Assembly (NCBI GenBank): GCA_004299485.1
Contig: SCQP01000016.1
Span: forward strand, 213,842-277,841
Direction: 5' to 3'
From: Acidobacteriota bacterium
Lineage (GTDB): Bacteria > Acidobacteriota > Terriglobia > Terriglobales > SCQP01
DNA length: 64,000 bases
A program made the position numbers and the translations under genes. Below are positions 5,495 to 34,674 of the stretch, in pieces (the first letter of the stretch is position 1; every line of letters starts with the position of its first letter). The notes below the pieces were generated by a model that had not been told where the DNA came from, ran no database searches, and saw only the letters and a list, made by a program, of their open reading frames with translations.

Positions 5495-5848
5495 ATGTAC
5501 GAGGACTTTACTGCTACCGATCCGCTGACCCACGAGAGCGTGCACTGCGAGTTTCAGTGCCTGATGGTGGGCATTGCCACGCGCCACTCCGACACCGTCG
5601 ATCTCAAGTTTCTGGTCAACGGCGAAGGCGTCTGGCTGGGCCTGCCCCACCCCGCCTGGGTCGAATTCAAGCGCCGCACGGGCGTGCCGCTCAGCGACCG
5701 GATGGCGGTGGATTTGGGCGGCTGCTACCTGAAGCAGGCGATCGAGAGCGGCGTGGGCGCCGAGCGCAATCACTGGAACGATATCAGCGTGGATGATGTC
5801 CTGAAGCTGGCCGCCAGCCTGAACTGGCTCCCCGCGTTGGGGAATTGA
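5495..5848 (+). CDS. Hypothetical protein
   Basis: 117-aa ORF whose stop overlaps the accC start region, suggesting an operon. No motif recognised. Confidence 0.45.
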   Translation: MYEDFTATDPLTHESVHCEFQCLMVGIATRHSDTVDLKFLVNGEGVWLGLPHPAWVEFKRRTGVPLSDRMAVDLGGCYLKQAIESGVGAERNHWNDISVDDVLKLAASLNWLPALGN

Positions 5849-7359
5849 TGTTCCGAAAAGTTCTCATCGCCAACCGGGGTGAGATCGCTGTCCGCCTGAT
5901 CCGGGCCTGCCGTGACCTGGGCATCACCAGCGCTGCCGTGTATTCCGATGTCGACCGCTGCGGGCTGCACGTGCTCGAGGCCGATGAAGCCTACCGGCTG
6001 GGGGAAGCGCCAGCGCATGAGAGCTACCTCAACGTCGAGCGCGTACTCGATGCCGCCCGCCGCTGCGGGGCCGAAGCGATTCACCCCGGCTATGGCTTCC
6101 TGTCCGAGAATGCTGAATTTGCGGCCGCGTGCCGTGATGCCGGACTGAAATTCATTGGCCCGGCGCCCGAGGCGATGGCGGCGCTGGGCAGCAAGACGGC
6201 GGCGCGCAAGCTGGCCAAGGATCACAACATCCCGATTTTGCCGGGCACCGTGGATGCGGTCACGTCGGTCGCAGAGGCACAGCGCGTGGCGGCGCAAATC
6301 GGCTTCCCGGTGATGCTGAAAGCCGCCGCGGGCGGCGGCGGCAAGGGCATGCGTCTGGTGACCCGGGCCGAAGACTTGCCGTCGGCCTACGCGCTGGCCG
6401 GCGCGGAAGCGGGCGCCGCGTTTGGCGATGCCGCCGTCTTTTTGGAACGTGCCGTGTTGGCGCCGCGCCACATCGAAATCCAGATTCTGGGCGATGAGCA
6501 CGGCGCCATGCTTTGGCTGGGCGAGCGCGAGTGCAGTATCCAGCGCCGCCATCAGAAAATCATCGAGGAGAGCCCCTCGCCGCACCTGAGCGAGAAGACC
6601 CGCCGGGCCATGGGCGCCTGCGCCTGCGCCATTGCCAACGCCGCCGGCTACACCAACGCGGGCACGGTCGAGTTTCTGGTGGATGAGCACGAGGGCTTCT
6701 ATTTTCTCGAGGTCAATACGCGGCTGCAGGTTGAACATCCGGTCACAGAATGGTGCACGGGCCTCGACCTGGCCACCTGGCAGATCCGCATCGCCGCGGG
6801 CGAGCCGCTTTCGTTCGGTCAGGACGACATCGTGCGCCGTGGCCACGCCATCGAGTGCCGCATCTACGCCGAAGACCCGGAGCAAAACTTCATGCCCAGC
6901 CCGGGCACGATCCTGCGACTGCGGCCGCCCTCGGGTCCGGGCGTGCGCGAGGACACGGGCGTGTACGAGGGCTGGACGGTGCCGCTCGAATACGATCCGC
7001 TGCTGTCGAAGCTGATTGTCTGGGGCGAAGATCGCCCGCAGGCGCTGGCGCGGATGCGCCGCGCGCTACGCGAATATCAGCTTGCCGGCCTGCGGAACAA
7101 CCTCGAATTTTTCCGGCGCGTGTTCGCCGATGCGGACTTTGAGGCGGGCCGCACCGACACCGGCTTCGTCGCACGCCTGCAGGCCAAGCCCGCCTTGCCC
7201 GCTCCCGATGCTGATGCCTGGTTCGAGGCGGCCAGCGCCTCTGCCGCCGTTGCCGCCACGCTGAGCCTGGGCGACCGGCCGACGGACCGGCAGATCGACG
7301 GACCGAGCAACTGGCAGCGCGCCGCGCGTCTCGCCGTGCTCGGCGGAGGCCGGCCATGA
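5848..7359 (+). CDS. accC: Biotin carboxylase (acetyl/acyl-CoA carboxylase subunit)
   Basis: 'MFRKVLIANRGEIA' N-terminus, ATP-grasp 'AAAGGGGKGMRLV', 'EVNTRLQVEHPVTE'. The track start at 5845 is TTG; the ATG at 5848 is more likely. Confidence 0.9.
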   Translation: MFRKVLIANRGEIAVRLIRACRDLGITSAAVYSDVDRCGLHVLEADEAYRLGEAPAHESYLNVERVLDAARRCGAEAIHPGYGFLSENAEFAAACRDAGLKFIGPAPEAMAALGSKTAARKLAKDHNIPILPGTVDAVTSVAEAQRVAAQIGFPVMLKAAAGGGGKGMRLVTRAEDLPSAYALAGAEAGAAFGDAAVFLERAVLAPRHIEIQILGDEHGAMLWLGERECSIQRRHQKIIEESPSPHLSEKTRRAMGACACAIANAAGYTNAGTVEFLVDEHEGFYFLEVNTRLQVEHPVTEWCTGLDLATWQIRIAAGEPLSFGQDDIVRRGHAIECRIYAEDPEQNFMPSPGTILRLRPPSGPGVREDTGVYEGWTVPLEYDPLLSKLIVWGEDRPQALARMRRALREYQLAGLRNNLEFFRRVFADADFEAGRTDTGFVARLQAKPALPAPDADAWFEAASASAAVAATLSLGDRPTDRQIDGPSNWQRAARLAVLGGGRP

Positions 7360-7853: not shown

Positions 7854-8201
7854 ATGCGGGCTGCCGACGGACAAGTCTTCGCGATCACCGGCCTCTGCCG
7901 GCAATCCGATTTTCGCGTGCCGCTTGGGGACTGGAGTTTGGTCCACCTGGGAACCGCCGAGATCGGAGGCGGCGAGGAACCGTACCTGCTGGTGCGCCGA
8001 AGGATGGATAACGGAACCAGTACGGTGGTTTGCCGCATCGATTGGGAGGGCGTGTTTACGGTGCTGGCCGACGACGATACCGCTGCGGAGGCGCTGTTTC
8101 ACGATCTGGTCGATCCGGCGGCGCCGGAAGAAGTCCAGCGCCAGTGGACGGCTGAGGCGGACACGCTCGAGCAATATCGCGGCTGGCGGCAACAAGCATG
8201 A
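7854..8201 (+). CDS. Hypothetical protein
   Basis: 115-aa ORF. Its stop overlaps the start of the next gene (ATGA). Confidence 0.45.
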   Translation: MRAADGQVFAITGLCRQSDFRVPLGDWSLVHLGTAEIGGGEEPYLLVRRRMDNGTSTVVCRIDWEGVFTVLADDDTAAEALFHDLVDPAAPEEVQRQWTAEADTLEQYRGWRQQA

Positions 8202-8953
8202 GCGACTGCTACTTCGAGTTCTGCAACGTCTACAAAAGCTTTGGCTCGAATACGGTCTTGCGGGACGTGAGCTTCGAGGTGTGCCGCGGCGAAACCGTCT
8301 GCATTCTCGGGCGTAGTGGCGTCGGCAAGTCGGTCATGCTGAAGCTGATCATGGGCTTTCTCACGCCCGATAGCGGCCGGATACTGGTGGACGGGCAGTC
8401 GGTTCCGGATATGACCGAGGCCGAACGGAATGCCATGCACAAGAAGGTAACGCTGGTGTTCCAGTCCGGCGCTTTGTTCGATTCGCTCACGGTGGCCGAA
8501 AACGTCGCCTTTCCACTGCGCGAGCGGGGCATGCACGACGAAGAAGAGATCGCGCAGGTGGTGGACGGCCTGCTGGACATGGTCGAGCTGCGCGCCGAGC
8601 GGGAAGACTACCCGGCGAGCCTGTCGACCGGGATGAAGCGCGCCGTGGCCATCGCGCGGGCGCTGGCCGCCAAACCCCAGGCCATCCTCTACGATGAGCC
8701 CACGACCATGGTGGACCCGATCATGGTGCAGAAGATCGCCGCCCTGATCGTGCGCGTGAAACAACAGGTCAAGTTGACGAGCATAGTTGTTACGCACGAC
8801 ACCCGCCTGGCCCGGCGCCTGGCCGATCGCCTGGTGCTGTTGCACGAGGGCGAAGTCCGCTTTTTCGGCACCGTGGCGGAGATGGATGCCACCGCCGATC
8901 CGGTCGTCCGCGAATTCCTGCGGCAGGACGAGTGGGCGCTCAAGGCGGGCTGA
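8198..8953 (+). CDS. ABC transporter ATP-binding protein (MlaF/Ttg2A-like)
   Basis: Walker A 'GRSGVGKS', signature variant 'LSTGMKRAVAIARAL', Walker B 'ILYDEPT', and the Mla-type 'MVDPIM' region. Confidence 0.8.
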   Translation: MSDCYFEFCNVYKSFGSNTVLRDVSFEVCRGETVCILGRSGVGKSVMLKLIMGFLTPDSGRILVDGQSVPDMTEAERNAMHKKVTLVFQSGALFDSLTVAENVAFPLRERGMHDEEEIAQVVDGLLDMVELRAEREDYPASLSTGMKRAVAIARALAAKPQAILYDEPTTMVDPIMVQKIAALIVRVKQQVKLTSIVVTHDTRLARRLADRLVLLHEGEVRFFGTVAEMDATADPVVREFLRQDEWALKAG

Positions 8954-8954
8954 G

Positions 8955-9065
8955 GTGGCTCGCCACTTTTTGCCCCGGTCGCTCCCGTTGGTCGCTCGGA
9001 GTGCGGGCTTCGATTCCCGGCAGAGTCCGCCCGCTGGCGCTCGGGGCTCCTCCAAGCTGCCGCCA
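8955..9065 (+). repeat. 111-bp interspersed repeat, copy 1
   Basis: Begins gtggctcgccactttttg and ends ctccaagctgccgcca. It starts 1 nt after the stop of the ABC ATPase gene. Near-identical copies lie at 29961-30071 and 34374-34484. Confidence 0.95.
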
Positions 9066-9521
9066 CATGTGCGCTTTTGGTCTCGTCCGCTGTTCCCTTT
9101 TTTTACGCTAACTGTACCACTTTGCAACGCAAAGCAGCGTATTTGCTGGGGATCTTGAATGTCTGGAGTGGCACACGCGGAACAGGAAATGGAACAGGCG
9201 CGTACGGGGCGCCGTGGCGGGTGGCGAGTCGCGAGTGGTGAGACAAGGCTGACGGACATGGTTCGAGTGTTGGATCGGCGGTGCGCACCCACGGTATCCC
9301 TGCTTCGCGCTCGCGCTACGCAGGGCAGGGCCGGCGGAGCTGCCCGGTCAAGCTAAGGACGGTTATGAGTAATTAGATGGGCAAAGGGATCATTTGGTTG
9401 GCCGGAAGGGAGAATGCGTGAGCCCTGAAATGGGACGGCGTGACCCCACATGAACGGGGATTGACTGCATCACGGCGTGAGTTGAGGCTGGTAGCTATTC
9501 GGCTCATTTCCGGACGCTGCC

Positions 9522-10847
9522 ATGCAGTTGAGAATCCCGCTCCTCGCCCCCGCCAGCAGGTTAATTGCCATCGCCCTATCGCTGTTCGGCGCTGGCTTGG
9601 CGTACGCGCAAATCCCCAATCTCACGGCTTCGACGGCGACGCCGTTACCCGAGCACGGCCATAGCTACATCAGCGCGCGGCTGCCGCAGGGCGACGATGC
9701 GGTGCAGGTGTTCGGCGGCGGCGTGAGCGAGTTCGTGAACCCGGCGACGGGATCGGTGAGTTGGCGCATTTGCACCACGCCGCCCAAAGGACGGCAGCTT
9801 TCGATCCCGTTCTGCTTCGTGTACGACTTCGCGGGCGTACACCATCTGGAAAACAACGCGCCGGGCAACCCGAGCTGGAATACGGACGCATCCTACCTCG
9901 AGCAGGGCGGCTGGACCTATTCGCTGCCGGAGCTGACGGAGGTGACGCGGCAGGAGGTGAACGGCAGCTATGTGTGCGACTACGCGACCGATTATATGTT
10001 CCGCGACAGCGAGGGCGGGCGGCACGCGATGGGGTTGTCGATTTTTGGTCCGGCGCCGGGCGCGCCCGCGAACTCGTGCTCCCAGGTGCAGCCGGCGCCG
10101 GGCGGGGTGACGACGGGCGGGGAGGGTGCGATTCTGGCGACGACGAGCGAGCCCAGCGGCAGCTTCAGCCTGCAGCCGGTAACGGTCACCGATGCCGACG
10201 GCACCCGCTACATCTTCAACGACCCCGGCAGGCAGGCGCTGGCGAACGGCTTCACGGCCGAGCTGCCCGACGTCATTGAAGACCGCAACGGCAACGAGAT
10301 CACCCTCACGGACAGCGGCAGTGGCAAGGTGACCGCGACCGACACGGTGGGCCGGGCGGCGGTGGCGACCTCGGGGTTTGGGGCAAGCGCGGGCGACAGC
10401 GTGCAGATTGCGGGCGAGAGCGCGGCCTATACGGTAGACTGGGGCACGGCGGCGTCGAGCTACAGCGTAGACAGCACGTCCGAGTCAGGAACGTGTACAG
10501 TGCCGGGAACGGTTTCGGGTTCGCAGCCCGTGGTGACCTCGATTGAGCTGCCGGACGGCGAGAGCTTCACCTTCCAGTACGATGCGACCTATGGGCTGCT
10601 CGACCGGGTGACGTTCCCAACGGGCGGCTACGTGCGCTACGTCTGGGGGATGAACGCGGCCGCCGAAGGCGGGCAGTTCGCCTCGACCAGCGGAACCTGC
10701 CTGGACCGCTACGGCGAGCCGGCGATCACGGCGCGCTACGTCAGCCTCGACGGGTCAAGTGAGGTTCTGGACCAGAGCTTTGCCTACGCGACCACCTGGC
10801 CATCGAGCGGGGCGGCGTGGAGCAGTAACGGTCACCAATCAGGATGA
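9522..10847 (+). CDS. RHS/YD-repeat protein, N-terminal part with Sec signal peptide (probably the 5' portion of a frameshifted gene)
   Basis: Signal-like N-terminus 'MQLRIPLLAPASRLIAIALSLFGAGLAYAQ'. The ORF ends inside the overlap with the next ORF, which continues the same type of sequence in another frame. Confidence 0.7.
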   Translation: MQLRIPLLAPASRLIAIALSLFGAGLAYAQIPNLTASTATPLPEHGHSYISARLPQGDDAVQVFGGGVSEFVNPATGSVSWRICTTPPKGRQLSIPFCFVYDFAGVHHLENNAPGNPSWNTDASYLEQGGWTYSLPELTEVTRQEVNGSYVCDYATDYMFRDSEGGRHAMGLSIFGPAPGAPANSCSQVQPAPGGVTTGGEGAILATTSEPSGSFSLQPVTVTDADGTRYIFNDPGRQALANGFTAELPDVIEDRNGNEITLTDSGSGKVTATDTVGRAAVATSGFGASAGDSVQIAGESAAYTVDWGTAASSYSVDSTSESGTCTVPGTVSGSQPVVTSIELPDGESFTFQYDATYGLLDRVTFPTGGYVRYVWGMNAAAEGGQFASTSGTCLDRYGEPAITARYVSLDGSSEVLDQSFAYATTWPSSGAAWSSNGHQSG

Positions 10848-13800
10848 AGTGCGGGGCGCAAGCGTCGCCACCGTTTACGCCTACTCCGGCTACACGGTGC
10901 CCTTGCAGCCAAACGACGCGACCGTTTCGACGCTGCAAATGCCGGTGGAGGCAACGATTACGGCCAAAGACTGGAACGGGGCGACGCTGCGGACAACGGC
11001 GGAAACGTGGAACAACCCGCGCGAGATGGCGTCGAAGGAAATTACCGAAGATGATGGCAAGGTGAGCGAGCAGACCTACTTTTACGATGCGAACGAACAG
11101 CAAACGGAAAGGGACGAGTACGACTACGGCTCGGGCGCGCCGGGCGCGCTCACCCGGGTGACGCTGCATACCTACGGTTGCGCGCCCGGCGTGCACATCG
11201 TGGACCGGCCGACGGTGGTTGAGATCGAGGGCAGCTCGCGGACGGTGACGGCGGAGACCGAGTACGCCTACGACCAGTCGCCGCTGGTGGCGAGCGGCGC
11301 CACCGATGGGCGCGATCCGGCCTACGGGGCCGGCCGGGGCATCACCGCGCGCTGCAACCTGACCACGTTGACCAAGGTTAACTACACCGGCAACATCAGC
11401 GAATCGTTTACGTATGACGATGCCGGAAATCGGCTCACCCACGCCGACGGCAACGGCAATACCACGAGCTTTGCCTATAGTTCGAGCGATCAGGCAGCCT
11501 ACCTTACCCAGATCACGCTGCCGAACACCACGACCGCGGGCAAGACCGTCCAGCACTCGTTCACCATGGCCTACGACAACACGACGGGTCTTGAGACCTC
11601 GCGCACGGACGTGCAGAACGCGACCACGACCAGCTTCACCTACAGCGATCCGCTCGACCGGCTCACCGGGCAGAACAATCCGGATGGCGGCAAGATCACC
11701 TACGCCTATACGGCCAACTCGGTCGAGACCAAAAAGCTGGCGATAAACTCCGCCTGGACCGACGCATTTGCGCACTGGGGTGGCCTGGGCAGTGCCGACC
11801 GCAAGCTGACGTACAACGGGACCAATTGGGACACGACCGACACGGCGTTCGACGGCGAGCAGATGCCACTGTATGTTTCCTATCCCTATTTTTCGAGCGG
11901 CATCGGCTCGACCAAGGCCACCAGCAACTCCACCGAGCCAGGCGACACGACCGCGTTTGATGGCCTGGGGCGCCCGACGCAGATCCTACACTCCGATGGA
12001 GGTACGATGACCATAGCTTACTCCGGTCCCAACCGGACGGTCACCGACGCCGCCGGACGGGCGCGCGAGGAGTTCTATGATGCACTCGGGCGTCTGGCCG
12101 AAGTGAAGGAGTTCACTGACGCCAGCGGCGACGGCTACGCCACCTACTATGGCTACGGTTCGCTCGATGACTTGAAGGCTGTGACCCAGGGCAGCGAGAC
12201 GCGCACGTTCGATTATGACAATCTCAACCGGCTGGTGGACGCGATCAACCCGGAAGGTGGAACAGTGGACTATACCTACGACAACGACGGCAACTTAATC
12301 AAGCAGCAGGACGCCAACGGCACCATCGAGAACTACACGTATGACGCGCTCAATCGTTTGCGCGCGCGCAGCTACACGGTGAGCGGCAAGACCGCGGCAA
12401 CGCCAGCGGTCGAGATCGACTACGACATCGACTCCACCGGTGCTGCGACCGATTACGCCACTGGCCGCATGACGCGGGTCATCAGCGGTTCAACTTCAAT
12501 TGGCATGGACCAGTACGATGCCATGGGCCGATTGCAGACCTATGACACCGTCGTGAGCAGCCAAACGTATCACACCAGCCTGCGTTACGACTATCTGGGC
12601 GACGCCGAGTGGGAGGAGCTGCCCGATGGGCGCGAGATTGACGCCACCACGGATTACGAAGGGCGGGCGAAGTTTTTGTCGGACCAGACGGCGAAGTACG
12701 ATTTCCTGCACTATCGGACCTACTCGCCGGCGGGCGGGCTGAGCGAAGAGGAGTTTGGCAACGGGCTGGTAGGGTACGTGGACTACAACAGCCGCCTGCA
12801 ACCGGTTCAGATCTCGGTCAAAAACCCCAGCGATCCGAGCGATAATACCTGGAGAATGAACCTCTCGATTGGATATACGGAGGCGGGGGTGCAGACGGCC
12901 GATAACGGCAACGTGGTTTCCCTGACGGATGCGCTCGGCAACGCGAGCCAGAACTACACCATGAATTACGACCATCTCAACCGATTGCTGAGCTGGTCGA
13001 TGGGAGGAGGTACGAGCTGTCAATTTGCGATTGATCAGTACGGCAACCTGGGTTTGTCGAGCGGCAGCGGCTGCGCGATGCTGAGCGGGCTGAGCTTCAA
13101 CGGCAACAATCAGATCGTGGGCTACACGTACGACGCGAGCGGGGATTTGTTGACGGATAACGCCGGGTCGAACTACGCCTGGGACGGCAACAGCCAGTTG
13201 GTGAACTTCTACACCGGGGGCGCAAGCGGCAGCTACGTGTACGACGGCCTGCTGCGGCGGGTGGAAAAGGCGGCGGACTCGGTCACGACCGTCTACGCGC
13301 GGGACGCGCTGGGCAACGTGGTGGCGAGCCTGACGAACGGCGTCTGGACGGACTACGTCTGGGCGAACCCGCCCGGGGCGGGCAACCGGATGGCCGCGGC
13401 GCCGGCGTCGCCGGATGCGGAGCGGATAGCGGCGGTGGTCGGCTCGGGGGTGGGCACGGTGTACTATTTCCACACCGACCAGGTCGGGACCACGCGCGCC
13501 GTAACCGACGAGAACGGCAACAACGTAGCCACGTGCGGGCAGAACGCGACGTACCCGAACGGGAGCTTTCTGACCTATGGCCCGTTCGGCATGCCGACGG
13601 GCTGCACGCAGACGGCGACGCCGATTCTGTTCACCGGGCACGAGCTGGACAGCGAATCGAACCTGAGCCAGTTCCAGTACCGCAAGTACGCGGCGCTGGA
13701 AGCCCGCTGGGCCACGCCCGACCCGGCCGGGGTGAACGGCCCGCCTGCGCCCTCGCCCAACGGCTTTGACCTCGGCCCGGCTGCCGCGGGCGCACCCGGC

Positions 13801-14088
13801 GATCTCGAACCCGAATCGCCCGTCGCGAGCTTGGCGACCCTGCCTGGCTTCGGCCTCCCGCTCGGTGGCGTCGACCCGCTTGAACCGCAGACATGGAACC
13901 CGTATGCGTATGTCGGCAATACGCCCGTAGTTTTCGTCGACCCGTCGGGACGATGGTGGGGCTGCGTAGCAATGAGCGTTGGCGCCCTAGGCTTTGGGCT
14001 TGCCGGCCTGGCCACGGCGGACCCGTTCCTCGGCGCTATTGGGTGGTCCCTCGGCGCCCACGCCCTGGCATGCCACTTTGTGATGTGA
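10759..14088 (+). CDS. RHS/YD-repeat polymorphic toxin, main body plus 44-aa C-terminal tip
   Basis: Many YD repeats (e.g. 'YTYDNDGNLIKQQDANGTIENYTYDALNRL'). RHS core end 'FTGHELDSESNLSQFQYRKYAALEARWATPDP' followed by 'NPYAYVGNTPVVFVDPSGR'. There is no credible start near 10759, so it is probably fused to 9522-10847 by a +1 shift near 10820. Confidence 0.85.
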   Translation: MRFWTRALPTRPPGHRAGRRGAVTVTNQDEVRGASVATVYAYSGYTVPLQPNDATVSTLQMPVEATITAKDWNGATLRTTAETWNNPREMASKEITEDDGKVSEQTYFYDANEQQTERDEYDYGSGAPGALTRVTLHTYGCAPGVHIVDRPTVVEIEGSSRTVTAETEYAYDQSPLVASGATDGRDPAYGAGRGITARCNLTTLTKVNYTGNISESFTYDDAGNRLTHADGNGNTTSFAYSSSDQAAYLTQITLPNTTTAGKTVQHSFTMAYDNTTGLETSRTDVQNATTTSFTYSDPLDRLTGQNNPDGGKITYAYTANSVETKKLAINSAWTDAFAHWGGLGSADRKLTYNGTNWDTTDTAFDGEQMPLYVSYPYFSSGIGSTKATSNSTEPGDTTAFDGLGRPTQILHSDGGTMTIAYSGPNRTVTDAAGRAREEFYDALGRLAEVKEFTDASGDGYATYYGYGSLDDLKAVTQGSETRTFDYDNLNRLVDAINPEGGTVDYTYDNDGNLIKQQDANGTIENYTYDALNRLRARSYTVSGKTAATPAVEIDYDIDSTGAATDYATGRMTRVISGSTSIGMDQYDAMGRLQTYDTVVSSQTYHTSLRYDYLGDAEWEELPDGREIDATTDYEGRAKFLSDQTAKYDFLHYRTYSPAGGLSEEEFGNGLVGYVDYNSRLQPVQISVKNPSDPSDNTWRMNLSIGYTEAGVQTADNGNVVSLTDALGNASQNYTMNYDHLNRLLSWSMGGGTSCQFAIDQYGNLGLSSGSGCAMLSGLSFNGNNQIVGYTYDASGDLLTDNAGSNYAWDGNSQLVNFYTGGASGSYVYDGLLRRVEKAADSVTTVYARDALGNVVASLTNGVWTDYVWANPPGAGNRMAAAPASPDAERIAAVVGSGVGTVYYFHTDQVGTTRAVTDENGNNVATCGQNATYPNGSFLTYGPFGMPTGCTQTATPILFTGHELDSESNLSQFQYRKYAALEARWATPDPAGVNGPPAPSPNGFDLGPAAAGAPGDLEPESPVASLATLPGFGLPLGGVDPLEPQTWNPYAYVGNTPVVFVDPSGRWWGCVAMSVGALGFGLAGLATADPFLGAIGWSLGAHALACHFVM
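12847..13913 (+). repeat. 1,067-bp direct repeat, copy A (inside the main RHS gene)
   Basis: Aligns colinearly with 14952-16018 at a constant offset of 2105 nt with no indels. Differences are scattered single-base substitutions. Confidence 0.9.
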
Positions 14089-14951: not shown

Positions 14952-16018
14952 ACCTGGAGGATGGACCTGTCGATTGGGTATACGAAGGCGGGGGTGCAGA
15001 CGGCCGATAACGGCAACGTGGTTTCCCTGACGGATGCACTCGGCAACGCGAGCCAGGATTACACCATGAACTACGATCAGCTCAACCGTTTGCTGAGCTG
15101 GTCGACGGGAGGAGGCACGAGCTGTCAATTTGCAATCGATCAGTACGGCAACCTGGGTTTGTCGAGCGGCACGGGCTGCGCGATGCTGAGCGGGCTGAGC
15201 TTCAACAGCAACAATCAGATCGTCGGCTACAGCTACGACCCAAGCGGCAATTTGCTGACCGACAGCGCCGGGTCGAACTACACCTGGGACGGCAACAGCC
15301 AGTTGGTGAACTTCTACACCGAAGGCGCCAGCGGCAGCTACGTCTACGACGGTCTACTGCGGCGGGTGGAAAAGACGGCGGACTCGGTGACAACCGTCTA
15401 CGCGCGCGATGCGCTGGGCAACATGGTTGCGAGCCTGACGAACGGCGTCTGGACAGACTACATCTGGTCGAACCCGCCGAAAGCGGGCAACCGCGTGGCC
15501 GCAGCGCCGGCATCGCCTGAGGCCGAGCGGATCGCCGCGGTGGTTGGATCCGGGGTGGGCACGGTGTACTACTTCCATACCGACCAGGTCGGGACGACGC
15601 GCGCCGTGACCGACGAAAACGGCAATAACGTGGCCACGTGTGGGCAGAACGCGACGTACCCGAATGGGAGCTTTCTGACGTATGGTCCGTTCGGCATGCC
15701 GACGGGCTGCACGCAGACGGCGACGCCGATTCTGTTTACCGGCCACGAGCTGGACAGCGAATCGAACCTGAGCCAGTTCCAGTACCGCAAGTACGCCGCG
15801 CTGGAAGCCCGCTGGGCCACGCCCGACCCGGCAGGCGTGAACGGCCCGCCGGCGCCATCGCCCAACGGCTTTGATCTGGGCATAACCGCCGCGGGCGCGC
15901 CCGGCGACCTCGAACCCGAATCGCCCGTCGCCAGCCTGGCGACCCTGCCCGGCTTTGGCTTGCCGCTCGGTGGCGTCGACCCGCTCGAGCCGCAGACCTG
16001 GAACCCCTATGCATACGT
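14952..16018 (+). repeat. 1,067-bp direct repeat, copy B (orphan RHS cassette)
   Basis: Homologous to 12847-13913. Homology starts at acctggag and decays after tatgc(a/g)ta(c/t)gt. Confidence 0.9.
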
Positions 16019-16187
16019 GGATGGCGACCCGGCGTCTGGTTTCGATCCCGACGGCCGCTGGAACTGGTGCCTCACCGGAACAGTCGTGTCTATCGGCCTG
16101 AAGGTCTGGGGTATGACAGGGAACCCAATCGCCTTCGCCGCCGGTTGGTACCTCGGCGGCTATGTCGCTTTTGCGTGCCTCAAATGA
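14961..16187 (+). CDS. Orphan RHS C-terminal fragment with alternative 42-aa tip
   Basis: The 408-aa ORF duplicates the last ~355 aa of the RHS shell and core ('MDLSIGYTKAGVQTADNGN...FTGHELDSESNL...'). It then diverges to 'FDPDGRWNWCLTGTVVSIGLKVWGMTGNPIAFAAGWYLGGYVAFACLK'. The ATG at 14961 corresponds to an internal Met of the main gene, so independent translation is uncertain. Confidence 0.75.
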   Translation: MDLSIGYTKAGVQTADNGNVVSLTDALGNASQDYTMNYDQLNRLLSWSTGGGTSCQFAIDQYGNLGLSSGTGCAMLSGLSFNSNNQIVGYSYDPSGNLLTDSAGSNYTWDGNSQLVNFYTEGASGSYVYDGLLRRVEKTADSVTTVYARDALGNMVASLTNGVWTDYIWSNPPKAGNRVAAAPASPEAERIAAVVGSGVGTVYYFHTDQVGTTRAVTDENGNNVATCGQNATYPNGSFLTYGPFGMPTGCTQTATPILFTGHELDSESNLSQFQYRKYAALEARWATPDPAGVNGPPAPSPNGFDLGITAAGAPGDLEPESPVASLATLPGFGLPLGGVDPLEPQTWNPYAYVDGDPASGFDPDGRWNWCLTGTVVSIGLKVWGMTGNPIAFAAGWYLGGYVAFACLK

Positions 16188-29934: not shown

Positions 29935-29952
29935 ATCGGTAGCGATTGGCGA

Positions 29953-30885
29953 TTAGCTATGTGGCTCGCCACTTTTTGCTTTGGTCGCTCCCGTTGGTCG
30001 CTTGGAGTGCGGGCTTCGATTCCCGGCAGGATCCGCCCGCTGGCGCTCGGGGCTCCTCCAAGCTGCCGCCAAGGGCGGCGCGCCCGCCTTACCTCGCGCC
30101 CTTGGTTGGCGTGGGGTTGCTTTTTGCAGGCCGAACATTTCGGCTTCGGTCAGGGGACGCATCTTTCCTGATTGTAGCTGGCCAATGGTCAATTTGCCGA
30201 TGGCCACGCGTTTCAGCTTTTCCACCGGGTGACCGACGAGCTGGAACATTTTGCGGATTTGATGATAGCGGCCTTCGACCAGCACCACCTCGAGCCAGGG
30301 ATTTTCGCGCGAGGTGCGGTAAACGCCTGCCTGCTGGCGGGCGCGGCCGCTGGCGCCGGCGTCGCGCAGCCAGCGGATTTGCGCCGGCGCGGTGCGCCGG
30401 CCATCGATCGTGACGCCGCGCCGGAGCCGTTCGAGATGTTCTTCGCTGGGCCGGCCGCTGACTTTCACCCAGTAGGTCTTGGGCAGCGCCGTGCTGGCTT
30501 TCAGTACATGGTTGGCGAGCTCGCCGTCGTTGGTAAGCAGGATCAGGCCCTCGGAGTGAAAATCCAGCCGCCCGACGGGATAGAGACGCTCCTTGATGCC
30601 CCGCAGCAGGCGAGTGTAATCGCTGATGCTGGGGCGGCCCTCTGGATCCCTGAGGGTGCTGACCACACCTTTGGGCTTGTAAAACAGCAGGTAGCGCAGG
30701 TTCCGTTCGCGCTGGAGCGGCTTGCCGGCTACGGCAATCCGGTCCGTGTCCCAGTCGGCTTTGCTGCCCAGCTCGGTCACAATGCGGCCGTTGACGCTCA
30801 CCTGGCCGGTGGTGATCAGTGTTTCCGCTTGCCGGCGGGAGGCATACCCCGCCTGGGCGATGAGCTTTTGCAGCCGGCTTTTCAT
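29953..30885 (-). CDS. rluB: 23S rRNA pseudouridine synthase (RluB/RsuA family) with repeat-derived C-terminal tail
   Basis: S4 domain 'MKSRLQKLIAQAGYASRRQAETLI' and catalytic 'GRLDFHSEGLILLTNDG'. ATG at 30885 chosen; the track ORF begins at 31155. The last ~39 aa are 'LAAAWRSPERQRADPAGNRSPHSKRPTGATKAKSGEPHS'. Confidence 0.85.
   Translation of the reverse strand: MKSRLQKLIAQAGYASRRQAETLITTGQVSVNGRIVTELGSKADWDTDRIAVAGKPLQRERNLRYLLFYKPKGVVSTLRDPEGRPSISDYTRLLRGIKERLYPVGRLDFHSEGLILLTNDGELANHVLKASTALPKTYWVKVSGRPSEEHLERLRRGVTIDGRRTAPAQIRWLRDAGASGRARQQAGVYRTSRENPWLEVVLVEGRYHQIRKMFQLVGHPVEKLKRVAIGKLTIGQLQSGKMRPLTEAEMFGLQKATPRQPRARGKAGAPPLAAAWRSPERQRADPAGNRSPHSKRPTGATKAKSGEPHS
29961..30071 (+). repeat. 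111-bp interspersed repeat, copy 2
   Basis: Same element as 8955-9065. Read on the minus strand, it supplies the last ~37 codons of the rluB ORF. Confidence 0.95.
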
Positions 30886-31024
30886 TGATCGCGGGCACCC
30901 AGCCGTGCTTCGCCCGGCGGCCCGTTCTCCGCGTCTGCGGGGGAGCGGCGGCGGGGGCCCCCGTGCCCCACCGCCGCCCGCATAACTGTCAGGAGCTTTG
31001 CCAGTGCCATGCCCATCTAGGGTA

Positions 31025-31513
31025 TCAGGGCAGCGAGGCGAGTTGGGTGGCGTTGGGCGACGCGGTGACGCCGAGGGGGCCTTTGCGGGCAAGAATGTCG
31101 ATACGAACCGGCGCCAGGCCCTGACCGCTGAAATGCAGCGCCCGGGCGGCGCCATAGCTCAGGTCAATAATGCGGGAGTCAGGCACCGGACCGCGGTCGT
31201 TGATCCGCAAAATGACGGCCAGATTGTTTGCGAGGTTGGTGACGCGGACGCGCGTGCCCAACGGCAGGGTGCGGTGGGCGGCGGTCATGGCCCACATATT
31301 GAACGGATGGCCGCTGGTGGTCTCTTTTCCCTGGAAAAATGAGCCATACCAGCTCGCGATACCCACCTGGTAGGGGAGCTTGACCGGAGGAATGGGGGCG
31401 GCAGGACTAAAGTCCTCAGGCTGGCCTGCCGATGATGCGTTAGGAACCCGCACGGCCAAAGGCGCGCTGAGGAGCGACATGGTCAAAAGGAGGAAGGCAA
31501 AGATTCGTCTCAT
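31025..31513 (-). CDS. rlpA: Septal ring lytic transglycosylase RlpA family protein (DPBB domain)
   Basis: Signal peptide, then 'GIASWYGSFFQGKETTSGHPFN...TAAHRTLPLGTRVRVTNLANN...VILRINDRGP'. Confidence 0.85.
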   Translation of the reverse strand: MRRIFAFLLLTMSLLSAPLAVRVPNASSAGQPEDFSPAAPIPPVKLPYQVGIASWYGSFFQGKETTSGHPFNMWAMTAAHRTLPLGTRVRVTNLANNLAVILRINDRGPVPDSRIIDLSYGAARALHFSGQGLAPVRIDILARKGPLGVTASPNATQLASLP

Positions 31514-33243: not shown

Positions 33244-34674
33244 TCAATTGCCGAAGACCGCGCCATGCGGGATGGCGCTGCCGGTCCAGCCGTTCGGCCA
33301 GCGGCGGGTGAGGTTGAGCTTGTAAGGCAGCAGACGGAGTTGGCCGGTGCTGCGGTTGATGGCGGCAAACAAAACTTCGGTTTCCATGGCGCCATACCCC
33401 GTAATCACCAGGCGATCGCCTCCAGGTTCGGCGGCAATCCAGTGCGGGTCATTGCTTGGCGGCAGCAGGATGCGGCTGACCTCATGCGGGTGTTCGGGGT
33501 CGTGCATATCGATGCTGAGGATGGCGTGGCCGCTTTGGGTATTCCAGATGAGGTATTGTCCCTCAACGACGGGAACTTCGCAAAAGCGGTAGCCGGGGTC
33601 GTAGATAGCGCGCAGCGTGGGATTATTGCCGGCGAGGCCGTCGACCCGGTACAGGCCGCAGTAGAAGTCGGGTACGACGACGGTGCGGCCATCGGCAAGC
33701 ACGCGCGGCTCGGAAGAATCGGCAACGTCGGGGAGCGTGCGCGGATCCGAGCCGGGCAGAACCATGGTCTTGAGCAGTGTGAGATCGGAGAGACGCCAGA
33801 CCTGCGCAACGCGGCTGGGCTGCGCGCCCATCATGTCGGCGCTGCTGGAGACGACGCGGTCGAGCGCGGGCACGACGGCCAGGCTATAGGGGCGAATATT
33901 CGGGTAGCCGGCGACCGCAGCGGAGACGGAGCGGACGACATGCCCGTCGGGCGCGAACTCGACCAGCCCGCCGGTGGCGTGATTGAAGCCGCCGGAGTAT
34001 TGAAACGTCGCCAGGGTGTTGCCGTTCGGCAAATAGATGAACGAGTGCGGGTAGCTGAAGTTGCCCACACTGCCAAACTGCCGCAGCAGGCGCGGGTGCA
34101 GGGGGTTGTGAAGATTGAAAACGTAGGTCTGGTTGCCGAGCCAGTCGTTGGCGTACAAATGACCATCCGGCGGCAGAGCGTAGCTGGTGTGGTGGGCCAT
34201 GCTCGCCTGGCCCACGGGCAGCATGGCGACGAGCTTGCCGAAGGGCTTGGCGCCGGGCGCGACGTTGAACACGGCCAGAAAATCGCGGCCCAGGCCTTGC
34301 GGCGAGCGGACGCCGGGTTTCATCTCCATAGCGGCATGCGGATGCCGTGACTCCATGGCCCAAACAAAAAGATGTGGCTCGCCACTTTTTGCTTTGGTCG
34401 CTCCCGATGGTCGCTTGGGGTGCGGACTTCGATTCCCGGCAGGGTCCGCCCGCTGGCGCTCGGGGCTCCTCCAAGCTGCCGCCAAATGACTTTGACTGGC
34501 ACGGGGCCTGGCGTGGCTGCGCCACGCCACCCGCTTGACGCTCGGCCGGGCCGAGGGCCCCGGGAGCCCCGGCCCGGCCTTCGCGTTAGGCTGCGGCGGG
34601 CGGGTTGCGGCCAGCAGCAGCGGCAGCGCGGCGGCGAGCGCGGCCAACAGGCAAGCGAGGGGGAGGCGCTTCAT
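33244..34674 (-). CDS. Selenium-binding-protein-like beta-propeller protein (SBP56/methanethiol-oxidase-like); N-terminal region contains repeat copy 3
   Basis: 'LFVWA...DFLAVFNVAPGAKPFGKLVAMLPVGQASMAHHTSY' resembles the SBP56-family N-terminus. 'MKRLPLACLLAALAAALPLLLAA' looks like a signal peptide. The true start is uncertain; internal Mets lie at about 34356 and 34329. Confidence 0.6.
   Translation of the reverse strand: MKRLPLACLLAALAAALPLLLAATRPPQPNAKAGPGLPGPSARPSVKRVAWRSHARPRASQSHLAAAWRSPERQRADPAGNRSPHPKRPSGATKAKSGEPHLFVWAMESRHPHAAMEMKPGVRSPQGLGRDFLAVFNVAPGAKPFGKLVAMLPVGQASMAHHTSYALPPDGHLYANDWLGNQTYVFNLHNPLHPRLLRQFGSVGNFSYPHSFIYLPNGNTLATFQYSGGFNHATGGLVEFAPDGHVVRSVSAAVAGYPNIRPYSLAVVPALDRVVSSSADMMGAQPSRVAQVWRLSDLTLLKTMVLPGSDPRTLPDVADSSEPRVLADGRTVVVPDFYCGLYRVDGLAGNNPTLRAIYDPGYRFCEVPVVEGQYLIWNTQSGHAILSIDMHDPEHPHEVSRILLPPSNDPHWIAAEPGGDRLVITGYGAMETEVLFAAINRSTGQLRLLPYKLNLTRRWPNGWTGSAIPHGAVFGN
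34374..34484 (+). repeat. 111-bp interspersed repeat, copy 3
   Basis: Same element. It lies in frame inside ORF 33244-34674, between the signal-like N-terminus and the conserved 'LFVWA' block. Confidence 0.95.

Follow-up and report, generated by a model that had tools for sequence, protein, structure and literature searches.

The stretch of DNA considered here (64,000 nt of contig SCQP01000016.1 from an Acidobacteriota bacterium of the Terriglobales, hereafter the window) carries three copies of a short interspersed repeat of 111 nt, all of them on the plus strand and assigned by the repeat search to one family, in which the other two are 93% and 96% identical to the reference one. The first-pass annotation had placed three plus-strand copies of exactly 111 bp at these positions, which is correct (they are 93–96% alike), and had remarked that this length corresponds to 37 codons, but it missed that the repeat is present in frame within protein-coding genes, copies 2 and 3 included. 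Reading frames are named below as s0–s2 on the plus strand of the element and a0–a2 on its antisense strand, which gives six translations of the consensus. The copies, the genes around them and the target motifs at their 3′ flanks are:

8198–8953, plus strand: ABC transporter ATPase gene (MlaF-like), the host-side gene of copy 1, uninterrupted; PF00005 is recorded for an identical product
8955–9065, plus strand: copy 1, intergenic, beginning 1 nt past the TGA stop (8951–8953) of the MlaF-like ABC ATPase gene
9066–9069, plus strand: 3′-flank target motif of copy 1, catg
29953–31155, minus strand: RluB-type pseudouridine synthase open reading frame (ORF), which reads through copy 2; Pfam domains S4 and PseudoU_synth_2
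29961–30071, plus strand: copy 2, antisense within the 3′ end of the RluB-type ORF, two codons ahead of its stop
30072–30075: 3′-flank target motif of copy 2, aggg
33244–34674, minus strand: SBP56/YncE-like gene of 476 aa, interrupted in frame by copy 3 and also by an unrelated insertion of 96 nt
34374–34484, plus strand: copy 3, antisense within the SBP56/YncE-like (methanethiol-oxidase-like) gene, read in frame a2, between the signal peptide and the mature domain
34485–34488: 3′-flank target motif of copy 3, aatg, formed by host codons (CAT T.. = His + Tyr) and conserved in the empty orthologue

The window copies start sharply at GTGGCTCGCCAC and end sharply at ...GCTGCCGCCA, spanning 111 nt, and in a 171-nt alignment that includes 30-nt flanks the flanking sequences are unrelated; the unit of the element runs from 5′-GTGGCTCGCCAC to GCTGCCGCC(A/G)-3′. 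The motif GTGGCNNGCCAC is found three times in the window, where 0.27 occurrences are expected, and is confined to the copies. Because of this excess, and because the same 111-nt unit occurs in other genomes, chance is excluded and the three copies are real repeats. A search of the 64-kb window by nhmmer, using a hidden Markov model (HMM) built from the copies, returned no other copy, full or partial.

Copies in related genomes

The family is present in related Terriglobales metagenome-assembled genomes (MAGs), so that further copies exist beyond the window, as the description of an interspersed family had implied. From the window and at least three other assemblies or lineages (contigs are cited below by L numbers) 21 distinct DNA copies were collected, some of them added through the contigs of element-bearing proteins; every one is 111 nt long and free of insertions and deletions, the mean column identity is 95%, the ends are sharp and the flanks unrelated. 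A further 13 copies are known only from within predicted proteins. A scan for exact matches to a strict 23-base pattern, run on a single genome of each GTDB species and not amounting to a genome-wide census, matched one MAG, Terriglobales bacterium TC-S bin.137 (L001–L005), where seven copies were detected with the HMM. Logan contig L008 (SRR8426591), which breaks inside copy 1, matches the window at 100% identity, and a contig of GCA_040961365.1 that is 98.7% identical to the window has copy 1 at the same site (L009 2208–2318). Intergenic copies occur as well, namely window copy 1 (w1), one of L005 and L011a. The insertion in the gene of YjbQ is a stable and intact allele, since it is found in identical form on eight contigs from different samples (JGI, ENA, and NCBI). 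Two metagenome matches (L006, L007) were dismissed as chance, having only a 24-nt pattern in common with the element and lying inside unrelated genes. Viral scans gave no match in one case and a single chance match (L018) in another, and blastn against plasmids gave no match to the element.

In-frame insertion into intact genes

Most copies lie inside intact ORFs (among them ThiE, YjbQ, NirA/Sir, peptidase M24, RibA, HycI, PIN, VOC/PhnB, and CobA), and among ten copies found by DNA alone seven to eight are placed within ORFs. When the six translations of the consensus were used in a protein search, 22 proteins among 5.8 billion clusters were found to carry the element, with ThiE, YjbQ, RibA, HycI, a PIN toxin, HigB, FkbM, ArsR, SDR, and alpha/beta hydrolases among the hosts. 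The extra residues were counted against solved homologues, to which each host aligns as two collinear blocks with the insertion between them, and they amount to 37 in YjbQ, 37 in peptidase M24, 36 in ThiE, 39 in NirA/Sir, and 35 in RibA. On contig L002 three genes in a row contain the element, all reading it in one frame, namely those for NirA/Sir sulfite/nitrite reductase, CobA (where it is placed after codon 3) and a VOC/PhnB-like protein; the paralogues of the last read SCRTQQEIDYYW when uninterrupted and SCRD[37 aa]QEEIDYYW when interrupted.

The clearest case is copy 3, for which a real empty site is available. Orthologues of the SBP56/YncE-like protein have 401–412 aa, as compared with 476 aa in the window, and an orthologue that is 94% identical in amino acids (P0023, encoded on L017) is without copy 3 and 69 residues shorter. 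At the insertion point the window reads AGT CAT T[111 nt]AT CTT TTT and L017 reads AGC CAC TTT CTT TTT, and excision of exactly 111 nt from the former gives AGT CAT TAT CTT TTT, i.e., SHYLF, which matches the motif SHYLFVWAME of the homologues. Because its deletion restores the SHYLFVW motif, copy 3 is a net insertion of exactly 111 nt, made without duplication or loss of target sequence; the remainder of the size gap to L017 (32 extra codons) is accounted for by the separate 96-nt palindromic insertion. An element longer by three variable bases and a G (114–115 nt) was considered and rejected, as it would delete a conserved residue of SHYLFVW.

Copy 2 is read in frame a2 as LAAAWRSPERQRADPAGNRSPHSKRPTGATKAKSGEPH. 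When it is excised in silico, the RluB-type ORF would end in ...CCG CCC TAT AGC TAA (PPYS*), as read from the sequence; the true start of this ORF probably lies near 30885, at MKSRLQKLIAQAG. Several of the insertions are likewise found at gene ends or directly behind signal peptides.

Reading frames and tolerance of the host proteins

The frames in which the element is translated follow their hydropathy. The grand average of hydropathy (GRAVY) and the number of protein matches are −1.59 and 8 for frame a2, −1.23 and 2 for a1, −0.96 and 7 for a0, −0.24 and 5 for s0, −0.09 and 0 for s1, and +0.34 and 0 for s2, so that hydrophilic frames are used (a2, a0, s0, and rarely a1). The insertions are antisense to the host gene in 25 of 34 cases, an excess that could be explained by this selection of frames. 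The window subfamily, with all three window copies, is open in all six frames, a property shared by only 1.75% of the 111-nt windows in this DNA. Substitutions among the copies are distributed over s0 codon positions 1, 2, and 3 as 11, 10, and 5; there is no concentration at third positions and therefore selection is not acting on one particular peptide sequence.

How a folded enzyme may accommodate the peptide is illustrated by the AlphaFold2 (AF2) model of the insert-bearing ThiE, in which the barrel is confidently predicted (mean pLDDT 91.7, pTM 0.85) and the insert (pLDDT 50–73) is located between helix 87–99 and strand 134–139, in an alpha-beta loop. In TIM barrels the alpha-beta loops lie on the face opposite to the catalytic beta-alpha loops, which is thus the face that would hold the ThiE insert.

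Termini, target and orientation

The termini share an inverted match of only 4 bp (TGGC/GCCA), and terminal inverted repeats (TIRs) of 15–30 bp are absent. No target-site duplication (TSD) accompanies the element: the flanking 3-mers differ in all 17 copies compared, and the empty site of L017 agrees. Both observations had been made in the first-pass annotation from the three window copies, and together they uphold its opinion that the repeat is not a classical MITE (a miniature transposable element with inverted repeats). The conservation that does exist outside the element is one-sided. At its 3′ flank, G is found at position +4 in 17 of 17 copies (20 of 21 when four more are included) and A at +2 in 12 of 17 (13 of 21), which gives a degenerate host pattern N-A-N-G, and the left flank is unconserved.

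Several copies adjoin start or stop codons within 0–4 nt (L005 3766–3768, L011 4459–4463, L011 418–421, and window 8951–8954), one of them standing directly against the ATG of queE and another four bases ahead of the stop of higB, which overlaps the start of higA. Such abutment may stem from the A-rich target NAN|NANG, or copies at the boundaries of genes may be the ones that survived. In the interrupted VOC/PhnB gene of L002 (5958–5978 versus 5847–5858) the upstream host sequence AGCTGCCGC (codons S-C-R, present also in the uninterrupted paralogue) equals the 3′ end of the element. A general homology of the left flank to the element 3′ end was rejected; it amounts to 9 nt (AGCTGCCGC) in L002c and 7 nt in L005, with p = 0.195 over 17 copies.

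Among five contigs with multiple copies, four have them in the same orientation: the window (3), L002 (3), L011 (3), and L010 (2). By GC skew, 7 of 10 contigs have the element plus strand as the G-rich one, a measure that is unreliable as a proxy of the replication strand, with some loci being extreme (−0.27). Over the whole loci the skew is unusually strong, at −0.27, −0.20, and −0.19 in L013, L005, and L002 (locus plus strand), as compared with +0.04 in the window.

Folding, RNA structure and covariation

The possibility of a folded element was raised by the first-pass annotation, which had described a 5′ palindrome and nested complementary segments. The former consists of two 5-nt arms (GTGGC/GCCAC), which are indeed present but are separated by TC, so that the palindrome is imperfect, and the other terminus shows no convincing hairpin. 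The nested segments also exist: the stem 40–47/96–103 is 91% and the stem 49–54/75–80 is 96% paired across 17 copies; no compensatory changes are seen in either of them. What had been taken in copy 3 for a substituted pairing (gcggac with gtccgc) is a shift of register onto a GTCCGC that most copies possess, and not a compensatory substitution. The minimum free energy (MFE) z-scores of the six strands (three copies, both strands) as RNA range from −1.09 to +0.28, and as single-stranded DNA (ssDNA) the consensus (z = +0.74/+0.32) folds no better than shuffled sequence, while the REP-like 96-nt insertion near copy 3 gives z = −4.4/−4.9 in the same test.

Covariation, the check proposed for the RNA idea, is found on neither strand. 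The RNAalifold covariation terms for 17 and 21 aligned copies are +0.53 on the plus and +0.05 on the minus strand, and pair tests of both strands (noted stems, RNAalifold structure, and subfamily stem) yield 0–1 compensatory pairs, observed counts being equal to shuffled ones; these tests are low in power, because the copies are 95% identical. The divergent copy of L013 breaks three of the eight outer-stem pairs without compensation. A divergent subfamily (L013 10154–10264; L019 9571–9681 and 12143–12253) has four linked substitutions (T72G, C73A, T94G, and C95T), which turn a 4-bp complementarity 72–78/90–96 into a perfect 7-bp stem; a hairpin may have been favored by selection in that lineage, or the change may have come about by templated repair of a quasi-palindrome.

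Searches for known RNAs were negative. No Rfam family reached its gathering score in the window, and a permissive Rfam scan of copy 2 returned noise, with DnaX RF00382 as its best match (16.6 bits, E 0.16, gathering score 35) and mir-4488 at E 4.8. ARAGORN found no tRNA or tmRNA genes. The element contains a T-arm-like GGCTTCGATTCC (window 9006–9017, 30012–30023, and 34425–34436) and ends in CCA; an origin from tRNA or tmRNA was rejected, given the blank ARAGORN result and a GGCTTCGATTCC whose loop would be of 8 nt and whose place is wrong with respect to the presumed pairing of the acceptor. On the minus strand (window 29952–29996, and the same position in every copy) GGGAGCGACCAAAGCAAAAAG is followed by the hairpin GUGGCGAGCCAC, which together nearly match the E. 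coli dnaX −1 frameshift cassette (a Shine-Dalgarno-like box, spacer, slippery run, and stem). In frame a1 this segment encodes GSDQSKK, resembling GSNQSKK of DnaX.

Interpretation and rival explanations

The element is probably a piece of selfish, non-autonomous mobile DNA in a lineage of the Terriglobales (Acidobacteriota), similar in its behavior to the Rickettsia palindromic elements (RPE). It would persist in genes since it is 3 × 37 nt long and free of stop codons, and once inserted it would be transcribed along with the host gene and translated into its protein. Selection would purge insertions unless the frame read is hydrophilic and flexible (a2, a0, a1, or s0) and the site is tolerated, as in surface loops, in linkers and at gene ends. 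As to the way it moves, the sharp ends, the 4-bp match and the lack of TSD exclude cut-and-paste DDE elements; these features fit enzymes acting on single strands or at a point crossover. A tentative proposal, which we regard as possible and not as the expected outcome, is that the element is mobilized in trans without staggered double-strand cuts, most likely by an HUH Y1 transposase of the RAYT/TIRYT-like kind. Under such a model the minus strand of the element would be active, with 5′-CNTN in the flank and 5′-CCAC as the last four bases. The ends of IS200/IS605-type elements normally carry clear hairpins. RAYT-like Y1 transposases (TIRYT) form a distinct acidobacterial group (PMC3733652).

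Several observations speak against this account or parts of it. Freedom from stop codons is not universal, the number of open frames being four or five in 11 of 17 copies. The co-orientation of copies is of marginal significance (estimated p ~0.05), and the two copies of L019 are in opposite orientation. A Pfam scan of the 43 ORFs of the window revealed only housekeeping and Rhs genes, and no transposase or autonomous partner. The element does not fold above shuffled sequence, and its target motif is degenerate. From the target side the minus strand would be the active one, but by GC skew it is mostly the plus strand that is G-rich, a conflict for an IS608-like model. Finally, active transposition is something we infer only from presence and absence between relatives and from the many insertion sites. 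Other mobile systems were considered and rejected. In L013 the copy has an IS110 gene at a distance of 1.2 kb, but the flanks of the 111-nt element are unconserved and the IS110 gene abuts a different family, so a bridge-RNA link was dropped. Integron attC sites, template or variable repeats of diversity-generating retroelements and CRISPR disagree with the location in conserved enzymes, with substitutions that are not adenine-specific and with the absence of arrays.

The first-pass annotation had favored a REP/BIME-like or structured-RNA element, and neither idea is supported: the repeat folds like shuffled sequence, shows no covariation, lacks the GTAG/CGTC tag and is mostly intragenic. A multi-copy structured non-coding RNA (a small RNA or a cis-regulatory one) acting through the nested stems is very unlikely, although the stems do exist at 91–96% pairing, the C/T variation at position 43 yields G-U and not C-A on the minus strand, the L013/L019 substitutions lengthen the 72–78/90–96 stem from 4 to 7 bp, and the 95% likeness of the copies leaves covariation tests little power. 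Against these points stand the lack of any Rfam match at gathering score (weak matches have E ≥ 0.16), the near-zero folding scores and shuffled-like pair counts given above, the uncompensated breaks in the outer stem of L013, and the occurrence of the element in both orientations relative to genes and at unrelated positions in coding sequence, which is a misfit with one RNA function. It is also improbable that the repeat is of REP/BIME type, spread by RAYT and domesticated by the host as a terminator, mRNA stabilizer or gyrase/IHF site. It is a short, GC-rich interspersed repeat in which a hairpin-like GTGGC..GCCAC is followed by T5, intragenic REPs occur in other phyla and RAYT-like genes in Acidobacteria (PMC3733652), and true REP-like palindromes are present in these genomes, even beside copy 3. 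However, it measures 111 nt and not 20–40 nt, it is non-palindromic by the ssDNA test that the neighboring REP-like insertion passes, and neither GTAG nor CGTC is found on either consensus strand; moreover, all copies are single, without dimers or clusters, seven to eight of ten are in ORFs, and their position with respect to gene ends is inconsistent.

If the element were an intervening sequence that is removed or skipped (by intron-like processing, translational bypass or frameshifting), the host protein would be made without the insert. The minus-strand GGGAGCGACCA(A/G)(A/G)GCAAAAAG followed by the hairpin GUGGCGAGCCAC, which resembles a dnaX cassette, would suit such a process, yet its score is well under the gathering score of 35, and a1, the frame that places AAA AAG in phase, is the rarest one and is closed by TGA in most copies. 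The length of 3n, the lack of stops in the host frame and the hydropathy-linked choice of frames are predicted by translation and needless under removal, while a group I or II intron would be far longer than 111 nt and an intein far longer than 37 aa, so that we find this explanation extremely improbable. A recurring peptide in many proteins, with several of the sources being short-read MAGs, might also point to a conserved module selected at the protein level, or to an artifact of assembly or binning. The use of four frames in both orientations, the lack of third-position bias and the intergenic copies (w1, L005, and L011a) oppose the module, and identical sites in independent NCBI, Logan, JGI, and ENA assemblies oppose the artifact; with almost no probability left to it, this reading is effectively refuted by the diversity of frames and orientations and by the independent assemblies.

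Likeness to known repeats

The closest parallel to the proposed selfish element is offered by RPE-1 and related families, short (~100–150 bp) interspersed repeats placed in frame within unrelated, intact housekeeping genes (Ogata et al. 2000/2002, summarized in PMC10969869 and PMC3733652). The 111-bp element is alike in being present in frame in many unrelated ORFs that stay intact, in encoding a peptide where the fold tolerates it and in having no associated transposase. The differences lie in the host, which is a free-living soil acidobacterium of high GC content and not an AT-rich obligate intracellular alphaproteobacterium; in the absence of the CGTC tag that is reported for RPE-4 and RPE-6; in its non-palindromic nature (z ~0), with no stable hairpin; and in its being read in four frames and both orientations, with a one-sided NANG flank preference. 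Homology to the RPE families is implausible at 70% GC here versus AT-rich Rickettsia, the families having been compared by description.

Intragenic REPs tagged with GTAG/CGTC are known from genes of several phyla, where they add 20–30 residues (Di Nocera et al. 2013, PMC3733652); they were argued to be neutral insertions in loops and linkers, and a link to Y1 transposases (RAYT/TIRYT), including an acidobacterial TIRYT group, was proposed (PMC3733652). They share with the 111-bp element the habit of small repeats within genes that add residues, but REPs are tagged stem-loops of 20–40 bp, often dimeric and mostly extragenic, whereas this element is non-palindromic, untagged, single and mostly intragenic. 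Palindrome-associated transposable elements (PATEs), which depend on IS200/IS605 HUH Y1 TnpA, are similar in having neither TIR nor TSD; their short one-sided target and their tendency to a strand-biased orientation may have a counterpart in the 3′ motif and in the co-orientation of copies. In contrast to them, the hairpin potential of the 111-bp element is weak, while PATEs have conspicuous subterminal hairpins; its target has one near-invariant and one partly conserved position instead of a fully specified tetra- or pentanucleotide; and the window has no TnpA gene. In-frame fusions are also made by MITEs, e.g., intragenic ERIC/RU, QMITE1 of Coxiella and the MITEs of Anabaena (PMC10969869, PMC2759123), which are likewise small and non-autonomous and contain ORFs able to fuse with those of the host; the TIRs of 15–30 bp and the TSD of MITEs are both absent here.

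The description as a novel interspersed family is borne out: there is no Rfam match, and no account of the element or of an acidobacterial equivalent was found in the full-text literature searched. That it represents the first example of a new kind of bacterial non-autonomous element altogether, one without hairpins, inverted repeats or TSD, with a one-sided NANG target and a mode of movement not yet described for miniature elements, shaped for translation in any frame, living mainly in coding sequence and being one of at least three in-frame families, is a bolder view that we hold to be rather unlikely.

Other repeats in the same genomes

A second, unrelated in-frame insertion of 96 nt (32 codons) is found in the same SBP56/YncE-like gene (window 34492–34587), only 7 nt away from copy 3. 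This insertion, which L017 lacks, forms two strong GC-rich hairpins (ssDNA z = −4.4/−4.9, as given above) and has on its minus strand a CGTC three bases past the first palindrome; its relatives occur in L001 6508–6569 (93.5% over 62 nt) and L005 1–27, and it looks like a true REP/BIME-type family that is also in frame. The gene of YjbQ contains a second insertion as well (L013 10469–10594), of 126 nt (42 residues), between the residues that correspond to 119 and 120 of PDB 2p6c. This insertion is a member of a third family, made of palindromic modules of ~47 nt, that is found also at L013 13263–13360, 14639–14730, and 18562–19021; the modules are abundant in the L013 lineage, where they include tandem arrays, and an IS110-family transposase gene (11856–13133) abuts one of them. 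Since the same genes carry other in-frame repeats, colonization of coding sequence seems to be general in these genomes.

The window has one more repeat, a direct one of 300 nt with 91% identity (12847–13146 and 14952–15251), situated in two adjacent Rhs-family genes. Their ORFs (10759–14088 and 14961–16187) have RHS_repeat and RHS core domains, and the repeat probably reflects a duplication of the Rhs core/tip.

Concluding remarks

At the practical level, elements of this sort lengthen and mis-start gene calls, break short-read assemblies (as in L008) and create spurious "conserved peptides" in databases. For those interested in movement, the sharp bounds of the unit, its lack of TSD and its asymmetric target make it a tractable handle on the mobilizing enzyme, and the set of host proteins shows, as a natural experiment, what kinds of 37-residue insertion an enzyme can accommodate. 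Being non-palindromic, the element separates "tolerated in coding sequence" from "palindromic." In-frame colonization of housekeeping genes by repeats, so far looked upon as peculiar to Rickettsia apart from intragenic REPs scattered elsewhere, is now found in soil Acidobacteria.

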